DNA of 64,000 nt from Octopus vulgaris. Lineage: Eukaryota. Below the pieces are notes generated by a model. The model was not told where the DNA came from and ran no database searches. It saw nothing but the letters and a program-made list of their open reading frames with translations. Position 1 is the first letter of the stretch, and each line of letters starts with the position of its first letter. Position numbers and translations under genes: made by a program. Where the stretch lies: the NCBI GenBank assembly GCA_951406725.2, contig OX597830.1, positions 56,048,001-56,112,000 of the forward strand. Direction: 5' to 3'. This document shows positions 46,801 through 51,000 of this stretch, one piece after another.

Positions 46801-49800
46801 TGCTTTGCTCTTTTATTTTATAAATTTCAATGTTTTGGCCTTGCAAGGCCCAAATCATGATCAGAAGGAAAATGAAATGTCATTTTGACCTGCATAGATG
46901 GAGTTGTGGGAATGCTGTGACATACAAAGATATTGTAGTGTTATATTAAGAAAAGAAATAAGCATTTTGGTTACTACCAATCTCCATAGATCACAACAAT
47001 GTTCCACTTTCTGTTCATGATGAAGGCTATATTGGCCAAAATATTGAGGTAACAGTATTTTCACTCTTTTATTTCTAACTTGAATTTTCTGGCTTTCTCA
47101 TTTTAATTGTATTTTTCCATTTCTTTTTTTAATTTTTTTTTTTATTAATGTTTGTAATTGTTCTGTTATTTCTGATGTGTTTGATTTACAGGAGAAAGCA
47201 GCAGTAGCCCCAGCAGCAGCAATAGCCCCACCAGCAGCAGCAGTAGCCCCACCAGCAGAACCAGTTGCCACAGAGACTACAGTTCCTGAAAAAGAAGCTG
47301 TCAGTGAAGAAAAGCCACCTCAGACAACAGAAGTACCTCCTGATAGCAGTCCTTCTAGTGTTGCTACTCCCGCTCCTGCCTCTGCTCCCGCCCCTGCTCT
47401 GTTAGAGAATATTGCCCCTGAAGCTACTACTGTCAGTGGGGACAGTGAGGAGACGACAGCCACCAGTGAGAAGACACCTACTCCACCCCCTCCTTCATCA
47501 TCGCCAGCTCCTGCCCTTTCAGCTTCCTCCACCACTACTACTACTACAACCACTTCTACTACTGTTGATACTACTACTACTACTCCTACTACTACTCCTA
47601 CTACTACTACTACTCCTACTACTACTGCTGCTGCTACTGCTGCCATCACCACCACTACCCCAACCACTGCCACCACTGCTGTCACTTCTACCACTGCCAT
47701 CACTACCGCCACCACTACCACTACCGCCGCCGCCGCCACCACCACCACCACCACTACAGACACCCCTACCACTGCTCCTCCTGTTTCTGCTGCTTCTGAA
47801 GCTCCAGAAACCAAACCTGATAATCCAGCCACTTCAGGTAGGTTGTTAGTTACACACCCAAACTATTGAGAGTCTCTTTTTCTCTTTCTTTCTCTCAATC
47901 CAGCCACTACAGGTAGGTTGTTAGTCACACGGACCCTGCTGGGGAAGAAGGGCCTCTTTTTCTCATTCATTTCTGTGTTCCATTCTGATTTTTAAAAAGA
48001 CACCCTATCCATTAAAACTGTATTTTCTCTCTAAAATGCATGATCACCTTACCTTATATGTCTGATACAAGGTTAGATTTGAGATGATTTGACTGTGGGC
48101 AAAATGTTTGTCAGTGCTAAGTGTGGCTCTCCATTTTAAGGTAGTATAACAATCAAACCTACTACTTATTATTTTGTTGTTGTTGTTGTTCAACCATGGT
48201 TGAACTCTGACACAACCAAATAGTTGATTCTCTCTCTCTTTCTCTCTCTCTCTCTCCTTACAGAAATCATGCAATTGAAAATATCTTAATTGTTTCAAAA
48301 TAAAACAGTTTGTGTTTTTTGTTGTTTTAATTTATGATGAAATACCTTGTCTCCAGGTGTAACTCAAGTTTTTTCCCATTTTAATTAACATTGCAAGTTT
48401 ACTGTTTACTCAACTAACTTCCTTCCTTGAACTAAATACTATTTCATCATCAGTTCTTAACCAATACATACCTATGTTGTTTTTATACAACTAGGTTCAA
48501 CACTGCATGATCACTAGGGCCACACATTCAAATACACTTGCTCTCTCTCTCTCTCTCTCTCTCTCTCTCGCTCTCTCTCAAAATTAGCAGGCTGTGTACC
48601 ACTAGTGCACCACCTCTCTACCTCTCTTCTGCTCCTCCTTCCCTGCTATCACTGTCTCTCTCTCTCACTTGCAAACACTGTAGTAAACCCAGTATTTTCT
48701 CTCCAGATTTGTTTTTAACAAATATCCACCTTATACAAGTTCCTACTGATCATCAACAGCATTTCTCTCTCTCCAGTCTGTAAGAGTCTGTGAAGATTAT
48801 GGGTGCTGCCCTTTCTTCTTCAGCCAAACAGAACAATAAATAAAAGCCAACCTATTGAAGTCATTATTTCTATAATGTTTTATTAGTTTTAAGGAGCTGA
48901 TGTTGTTTTTGGTTTTGGTTTCTTGTACATTTGTCATGTCATGCACCTTTTTTTGGTTTTGTTCTTTTTGTTTTGCTGCTTTCAGATAACAATGACAAAG
49001 TACTTCACTTTATATTGATTTCTTTGTTTTTTCTCTCTCTTTCTTTCTCTCTGTCTCTCTCTTTCTCTCTCTCTCTATCTCTCTTCTATAATTCCCCCTT
49101 CCCCCCAGAAAATAAAAAAAAAAAGAAAAGGAAGAATGCTTCAAGAAATCACCATCAGACAGTTCCTCAATTCAACACCTTGTCAAATCTTTACTGTTCC
49201 TAAATTGTCGTTATTGTCTATAAGACAAGCTGAGCTTTCAGCCTTCTCTCATTCTTCATTCTCATTTCAGAGCTTGACAAAGTTAAGCAGCAGACTAATC
49301 TTTCAGTATTCACCATGAAACTGCAGAGAAGAAATTTTCGAGCCATGATGTTCCTGCATTACTCGAAAGGGAAAAGTGCAGCTGACAGTCATGAAATTTT
49401 GTATCGATTATTTCAGGATTTAAGTCCCTCTTACAGTACAGTTAAATTCTGGTTTGGAGAATTTAGACGTGGTAAAGAAGATCTGGAAGATGACCAAAGA
49501 ACTAGCCGCCCAAACACTTCAATACTCGCTGAAAATATTGAAGTTATAGAGGCAATGTTGAATAGTGATAAAAGATTGACACCTAAAGAAATAGAAGGTA
49601 CCTTAAGCATTGGATCAGGAAATGTCAAATGGATTCTACAGAATCATATGCATTTAAAACAGCATAGTTGCTGTTGGATTCCACAAACTCTTAATGAAAT
49701 GCAAAAGCAGGCTCGAGTGGAATGGTGTCATTATATGCTGAAAAAATTTGAAAATGGAGGTTCTCCTAAGGTCTGGGATATTGTTGTAGAAGACCAGATT

Positions 49801-51000: not shown

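Follow-up and report, generated by a model that had tools for sequence, protein, structure and literature searches.

A domesticated mariner transposase in the last intron of octopus SMARCE1 is probably spliced as an alternative last exon

The octopus SMARCE1 gene contains a mariner transposase, single copy and without TIRs, which likely serves as an alternative last exon spliced in frame to the host exons, with a probability of roughly 0.7 by our estimate. The product would be a 1115-aa fusion protein that is made beside the 792-aa SMARCE1 and adds a DNA-binding module to it. The window analysed is a 64,000-nt stretch of Octopus vulgaris contig OX597830.1 (forward strand, 56,048,001 to 56,112,000), and positions are those of the window. 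That the transposase is domesticated is close to certain, and a SMARCE1-transposase fusion isoform probably exists. A role of the fusion in BAF targeting is a tentative proposal, with the odds somewhat against it.

The host of the transposase ORF is a SMARCE1/BAF57 gene of 16 exons on the + strand, and the ORF occupies its last intron. The exons were mapped with tblastn of the Argonauta fusion protein described below. Coding exons 1-15 (10798-47837, +) encode the HMG box, the conserved core, and a long Thr/Pro/Ala-rich tail. Specifically, exons 1-5 are at 10798-10849, 11378-11427, 14691-14780, 21080-21154, and 27764-27895 (+), exons 6-10 at 37666-37753, 38202-38242, 39151-39243, 39423-39477, and 41013-41185 (+), and exons 11-15 at 41303-41404, 43077-43433, 43813-43995, 44465-44569, and 47192-47837 (+). 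All introns of exons 1-15 are GT..AG, and the frame is open. The canonical last coding exon (50864-51000, +; stop position approximate) encodes 45 acidic residues and ends with ESNK and the stop. Among PDB chains, the non-transposase part matches human SMARCE1 best (6lth_Q, E 1.3e-84). Four sequencing runs were treated as RNA because their contigs bridge GT..AG introns, and the five introns between exons 10 and 15 are bridged in all four. As in a host-transposase fusion, the parental transcript is present alongside: the canonical joint 47832>50859 (cut +5, i.e. 47837->50864), which yields the 792-aa SMARCE1, is found in three of the four runs.

The uninterrupted 353-codon ORF described in a sequence-only reading of this DNA is found at 49315-50376 (+). 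The 353-aa product contains HTH1 (residues 5-54), HTH2, a linker, and an RNase H-like domain with D160/D255/D290. It is the longest of ten ATG-started ORFs of at least 100 aa in the 64-kb window, and its frame is free of stops for 380 codons starting at 49234. By eye, none of the other 20 stop-to-stop frames of at least 110 aa in the window resembles an intact TE protein. A Pfam scan of the ORF gives HTH_48 (Mos1 HTH) at E 9.6e-10 and a Transposase_1 match below threshold. An AlphaFold2 model of the transposase has a pLDDT of 90.6 (77 sequences), and the top Foldseek matches of this model are Mos1 (E 9e-25), with a sequence identity of 26%. The closest solved structures are Mos1 and SETMAR, and the structural matches include 3f2k, 3k9j, and 7s03. 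All three aspartates, which the sequence-only reading had called kept, align with those of Mos1, and 34 residues separate D255 and D290. The D,D34D triad, the Mos1-type HTH, and the RNase H-like fold of the predicted model place the protein among DD34D mariners.

The altered mariner motifs reported earlier are also all present, namely TGDE to VEDQ, HDNARPH to HDDTRIN, YSPDL to SSPDL, WVPHEL to WIPQTL, and RSGRP to RTSRP. An autonomous DD34D mariner would carry intact WVPHEL and YSPDL, which here read WIPQTL and SSPDL. The H124Q change in WIPQTL is fixed in every ortholog seen. Conservation among 25 close free-type relatives reaches 90% or more in 100 columns; the octopus ORF keeps 80 of these and has lost 20. 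The word "eroded", used before for these motifs, is wrong: 15 of the 20 lost mariner-invariant residues have the same replacement in Argonauta. In a quick tree, the stem is 0.38 long, and the branches since the Argonauta/Octopus split are 0.04-0.05. The shared replacements, together with the long stem and short branches, therefore indicate that the motifs changed early and were then frozen.

A DNA search of the genome returned the locus itself alone, and the ORF is single copy as far as the search sees; copy counts from the genome searches are lower bounds. In a protein search of the genome, the best 115 of 36,634 candidates scored are the locus, a paralog on contig C4 (48% identity), and 113 loci at 27-32% identity, so that one locus besides the ORF exceeds 32% among them. 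No TA-flanked inverted repeat was found in the 400-800 nt flanks of the ORF, in agreement with the absence of TIRs claimed before. When the two flanks are compared in inverted orientation, a poly-A/poly-T run scores highest (41); it beats 100 of 100 shuffles but is low-complexity sequence and not a TIR. As a positive control, the same test was applied to 18 loci of a different mariner family of this genome, and 15 of them have a TIR flanked by TA; for the remaining three, the best inverted match printed is an AT-rich microsatellite. The 18 fetched loci of the 27-32% family share 94-99% pairwise DNA identity and thus form a young family, which is unrelated to the ORF. A young TIR-bearing family with the same substitutions as the ORF was sought and not found, the resident young family being just 27-32% identical. 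We rejected a young active element as the identity of the ORF, which is single copy and has neither TIRs nor a TA duplication. The young mariner family is present on many contigs, with 354-codon frames, many of them stop-free, and TA-flanked TIRs of ~37 bp, and was possibly active recently.

The nearest free-type transposases are 49-53% identical to the ORF. When the closest free-type relative was used as query for relics of the source family, just two loci, both domesticated, exceeded 39% among the best 115 of 54,734 candidates. One full-length relative of P0004 turned up in a scan of metagenomes, but its identity of 60% is too low for it to provide the source TIR. A TIR or MITE family that the transposase might bind was not identified either. 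In a substitution-only simulation, the ORF stayed open in 0.55% of runs at 0.1 substitutions/site and in 0 of 2000 at 0.2. A chance ORF was rejected as the explanation for the 353-codon frame. Mariners are known for horizontal transfer, which can mimic conservation, and a recent or neutrally decaying copy, or transfer into both lineages, could thus be considered. Such an origin is largely refuted, and we regard it as extremely improbable: the transposase occupies the same position of the same host gene in Argonauta and Octopus, it is single copy and TIR-less, its nearest free-type relatives are as distant as stated above, and the simulated frame closes rapidly.

Canonical splice sites (GT after 47837, AG before 49271) join SMARCE1 and the transposase in one frame. 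The phase-1 donor after 47837 (47833-47843, +) is common to both last-exon choices. The transposase exon has a polypyrimidine tract and a phase-1 AG acceptor (49245-49270, +; cut between 49270 and 49271), followed by a 15-codon in-frame leader ahead of the transposase ATG (49271-49314, +; 44 nt, same phase as the donor). The splice 47837>49271 is predicted to give an open frame of 1115 aa, containing nearly all of SMARCE1 and the entire transposase, in which the 45 acidic C-terminal residues of SMARCE1 are exchanged for 368. The leader peptide is identical to that of Argonauta at 11 of 14 residues. Compared with the leader of the C4 paralog, the changes are mostly synonymous (over 12 codons, pS is 0.56 and pN 0.27), and a 6-nt indel leaves the frame intact. 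Because no polyadenylation hexamer (AATAAA or ATTAAA) is present between the ORF stop and 51078, the transposase exon may simply be the canonical last exon in an extended version, entered via an upstream acceptor.

A candidate 14-nt microexon with AG and GT borders (48986-48999, +) encodes DNNDK, which resembles the DKNDK found where the two parts of the Argonauta model meet. If included, it would change the reading frame and lead to a stop at the TGA overlapping the transposase ATG. It is not spliced in any of the 15 of 38 joints listed.

In run X17 (organism B), record 12 covers 49266-50376 with 24 further unplaced 5' letters. Record 13 of the same run, the canonical splice, starts at 50859 and also has 24 further 5' letters. 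The five-letter overhangs are explained by the sequence TTCAG, which the donor and both acceptors share. Thus, one of the four runs has a contig that enters at the transposase acceptor in the way the canonical contig enters at the usual last exon, and we infer that its upstream side is the 47837>49271 joint. This joint is absent from the 15 of 38 joints listed.

Contigs of the other three runs (X9, X10, and X11, one from the same organism as X17) align straight through 49092-49270, indicating that this stretch is not masked. They represent unspliced read-through of the last intron, which in X11 extends from 47808 past the transposase stop. The read-through form would encode a truncated SMARCE1 of 757 aa. 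Translation of the ORF from a long read-through RNA is unlikely because 18 ATGs, between 47838 and 49314, precede the transposase start. The read-through contigs extend up to ~390 letters beyond the transposase stop. Since an A-rich tract lies in that direction, near 50740, they may stem from pre-mRNA that was primed internally. The last intron (47838-49270) is contig-covered, unlike most upstream SMARCE1 introns, and this coverage may represent a retained intron, an alternative 3' end, or internal priming. Contig depths are 15.9 for the transposase exon, 47.8 for the canonical exon, and 4.65 for the intron, and are a poor measure of expression.

The continuity of contigs from at least 49092 in three of the four runs would also suit a stand-alone domesticated protein of 353 aa, translated from its own ATG after an internal promoter or a short 5' exon, with the SMARCE1 splice as a minor by-product. 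The ATG has a good start context (ACCATG), the transposase is annotated by itself in RefSeq O. bimaculoides, and the C4 paralog is nearly stand-alone, with a first exon of five residues. CSB-PGBD3 is a precedent for several products at one locus, which makes a solitary transposase product too. On the other hand, the in-frame leader peptide ahead of the ATG is conserved, the Argonauta model is fused, and the X17 contig enters at the acceptor with a donor-compatible overhang. We consider a mainly stand-alone product unlikely, and fusion and stand-alone products are not mutually exclusive. The sequence-only reading of an old, immobilised copy under selection is supported, but it treated the ORF as a stand-alone gene; given the location within SMARCE1, the in-frame acceptor, and the conservation of the leader, a SMARCE1-transposase fusion is the most likely product.

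The fusion is so far an unremarked database model from Argonauta. Specifically, a 90%-identity cluster has three members: the O. bimaculoides protein (353 aa), another 353-aa protein, and the Argonauta hians protein GAB1609329.1 (1243 aa). The gene model of the latter, annotated as a "hypothetical protein", reads SMARCE1 and then transposase, with an HMG box, a Mos1 HTH, and a transposase domain. Its junction peptide differs from that of the predicted octopus fusion. The RefSeq O. bimaculoides protein is stand-alone, 353 aa long, 99% identical, and labelled "SETMAR-like". In a search of 50%-identity representatives, it is the sole one of the best 150 to exceed 56%. When homologs of greater length were sought, 0 of 3213 candidates passed, but the search is uninformative because it missed the known 1243-aa Argonauta fusion. 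A search of the ESM Atlas with the Argonauta fusion gave no usable match.

The transposase is in the same place of the same host gene in Argonauta and Octopus, whose split is many tens of millions of years old. The transposase exon is identical to that of Argonauta at 332 of 368 residues (~90%), compared with 31/61, 12/35, and 98/215 (34-51%) for the three preceding low-complexity host exons and 76-100% for SMARCE1 exons 1-12. Within the transposase, 54/55 residues of HTH1 are identical, 16/17 of residues 56-72, 38/46 of HTH2, 14/17 of the linker, and 199/218 of the catalytic domain. HTH1 is thus the most constrained part. The orthologs of O. bimaculoides (99%) and A. hians (~90%), the single copy, and the lack of TIRs bear out the age, immobility, and selection proposed before. 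Two further contrasts are not significant. Differences from Argonauta fall in 7/100 family-conserved columns vs 14/111 elsewhere (p 0.25). The SNP contrast with organism B, which has one synonymous change in the 1062 nt of the ORF, is 1/1062 vs 4/1289 (p 0.39; pooled 10/1689, p 0.06).

The paralog on contig C4 (C4:103088851-103100706, -) is a second domesticated mariner gene, with a short MPKMK first exon and the same acceptor and leader. Its leader, ELDKIRLQRQVFSM, is homologous to the ORF leader, and the position and phase of the acceptor are the same. The 5-residue MPKMK exon lies 10.8 kb upstream with a phase-1 GT donor, and is spliced in the same phase in the O. vulgaris and Argonauta models. 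The Argonauta copy of the paralog is labelled "serine-rich adhesin for platelets-like isoform X6" and is 86% identical. The C4 protein lacks the first two catalytic aspartates (the D160 and D255 equivalents) and the RSGRP region, and its residues 1-118 are acidic, with a net charge of -8.

In the quick tree (46 rows, midpoint root, without bootstrap), the SMARCE1-linked and C4 clades are sisters with an SH-aLRT of 99. They have 13 states in common, C120 and Q124 among them, none of which occurs in more than 1 of 25 relatives. Between the paralogs, dN is 0.41 and dS is ~1.8, near saturation. Duplication of a domesticated exon together with its acceptor appears favoured over an acceptor-carrying element family captured twice, because the shared H-to-Q change should impair transposition. 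An ORF listing of ~240 kb gave no convincing partner exons of a host gene for the C4 paralog. By eye, the paralog's first intron contains a 727-codon LINE-type reverse transcriptase frame (C4:103094942-103097122, -), and an intronless 298-codon, cyclin-like frame (C4:103112456-103113349, -) lies ~12 kb upstream of its first exon.

The changed motifs bear on activity. According to passages of PMC4344528, H122 and Y276 of Mos1 form the flanking-T pocket, and substitutions of the His make Hsmar1 hypoactive. The equivalents of these flanking-T stacking residues are replaced by H124Q and Y282S in the ORF. Passages of PMC5481204 report that H122A leaves Mos1 strand transfer unaffected and that W159 is needed for excision and integration; the equivalent of W159 is kept as W163. 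Transposition is unlikely because the flanking-T pocket residues are replaced and there are no ends to act on, and the loss of the pocket His and Tyr accords with the earlier view that the copy is probably transposition-deficient. With all three aspartates retained, the protein may still nick DNA in a metal-dependent manner.

The DNA-binding region, residues 1-118, retains a normal net charge of +3, within the range of -1 to +8 of 25 close free-type relatives. Near-invariant DNA-binding residues are also changed (G64S, H109Q, and K116Q), so that binding to the ancestral TIRs is not assured. A homodimer prediction, in which the alignment was not used, scored 0.01 vs a mark of 0.32 and speaks neither for nor against dimerisation.

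We propose that an ancient mariner inserted in SMARCE1 before the Argonauta/Octopus split and then lost mobility. Because just the last 45 acidic residues are exchanged, the fusion would retain the HMG box along with the conserved core and would still take its place in BAF (SWI/SNF). Held on a low-complexity tether of ~300-430 residues, the transposase would supply a module that binds DNA, HTH1 being its most constrained part, and that probably dimerises. This module may steer a minority of the BAF complexes towards specific sequences, whereas its catalytic domain would most likely be a conserved scaffold that no longer transposes. Judged from sequence, the most likely role is thus that of a DNA-binding, dimerising module tethered to BAF through a near-complete SMARCE1; we infer the BAF assembly, DNA binding, and targets of the fusion.

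A real fusion could instead be catalytic or defensive, acting as a DDD nuclease at remodelled chromatin or as a dominant-negative poison of active mariner transposases. The kept triad and W163, the 199/218 identity of the catalytic domain in Argonauta, the fixation of new acidic residues adjoining the aspartates (E159 and D256), and the presence of the young TIR-bearing family (94-99% pairwise identity) would fit such a function. However, at 27-32% identity to the young family, cross-dimerisation is doubtful, H260, N256, E161, H124, and Y282 are all replaced, and the C4 paralog is as conserved (86%) without the D160 and D255 equivalents, showing that conservation needs no catalysis. We judge a catalytic or defensive role improbable and prefer the tethered DNA-binding module.

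BAF complexes are normally recruited through separate transcription factors. More speculatively than the targeting role itself, an octopod BAF isoform with a built-in transposase could be a self-targeting remodeller, reading transposon-derived sequences without a separate transcription factor. Splicing to the acceptor, possibly toggled by the microexon, might switch it on, and the dead acidic paralog might tune it via heterodimers. If true, a covalent transposase module on SMARCE1 would mean a lineage-specific retargeting of chromatin remodelling in octopods.

The arrangement resembles known host-transposase fusions such as CSB-PGBD3 or KRABINER, with a BAF subunit as the host of a predicted fusion protein. 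CSB exons 1-5 exclude the ATPase. CSB-PGBD3 joins these exons alone, whereas octopus SMARCE1 loses just its last 45 residues; CSB-PGBD3 is also of piggyBac type, and the octopus element is a mariner. As described by Newman et al. 2008 (PMC2268245), CSB-PGBD3 likewise involves a domesticated transposase that lies within an intron of a gene for a chromatin remodeller and provides an alternative 3' exon; the fusion transcript occurs together with the parental one, and the fusion has been conserved over tens of millions of years. The same paper gives >600 MER85 elements as candidate targets of PGBD3, in contrast to none identified in octopus. KRABINER, in the text of Cosby et al. (bioRxiv 10.1101/2020.05.07.082677), is a mariner in the last intron of a host gene, spliced to the upstream exons as a whole transposase with a DD34D domain, while the parental transcript is kept. 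It differs in its vertebrate KRAB zinc-finger host, the octopus host being an HMG-box BAF subunit in a cephalopod lineage, and the source TIRs of the octopus element are no longer recognisable. "HMG" and "SWI" have 0 occurrences in the main text of that preprint (10.1101/2020.05.07.082677).

SETMAR/Metnase, the Hsmar1 fusion, is similar in that a mariner transposase was captured as the last exon of a chromatin gene. The third catalytic position of SETMAR has changed from D to N, whereas the octopus ORF keeps three aspartates. The Argonauta fusion has an HMG box and no SET domain by Pfam, and its origin is independent. Orthology to SETMAR was rejected on the lack of the SET domain and on the host being SMARCE1, and the SMARCE1 context corrects the "SETMAR-like" database label. 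Mos1 and other DD34D mariners share the HTH-HTH-RNase H architecture, the DD34D spacing, and the predicted fold; the octopus locus differs by the altered WVPHEL, HDNA, and YSPDL motifs, the absence of TIRs and of a TA duplication, and its single copy. No literature on an octopus SMARCE1-transposase fusion was found in a search that covered few subscription papers. Among the papers listed on domesticated transposases in cephalopods, none is on a SMARCE1 fusion by title or abstract start, those listed on BAF57 together with transposase fusions or molluscs are unrelated, and "fusion" and "SETMAR" have 0 mentions in passages of a survey of metazoan TE-derived factors (PMC10027918). With the octopus case, transposase capture, so far exemplified by KRAB and SET fusions of vertebrates, would also include a cephalopod and a structural remodeller subunit.

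The SMARCE1 tail (43813-47837) is a very long Thr/Pro/Ala-rich segment, the protein having 792 aa overall vs 411 aa in the human PDB chain. It contains CTA/CCA triplet repeats, with a length polymorphism at 47210. A second copy of the exon 15 end, donor included, follows 75 nt downstream and is preceded by a pyrimidine tract (47822-47931), an arrangement that might give a 9-nt in-frame microexon at ~47905-47913. Short interspersed SINE-like repeats in the SMARCE1 introns at 44240-46470 attract many unrelated contigs, with a depth in the thousands at ~46105-46451.
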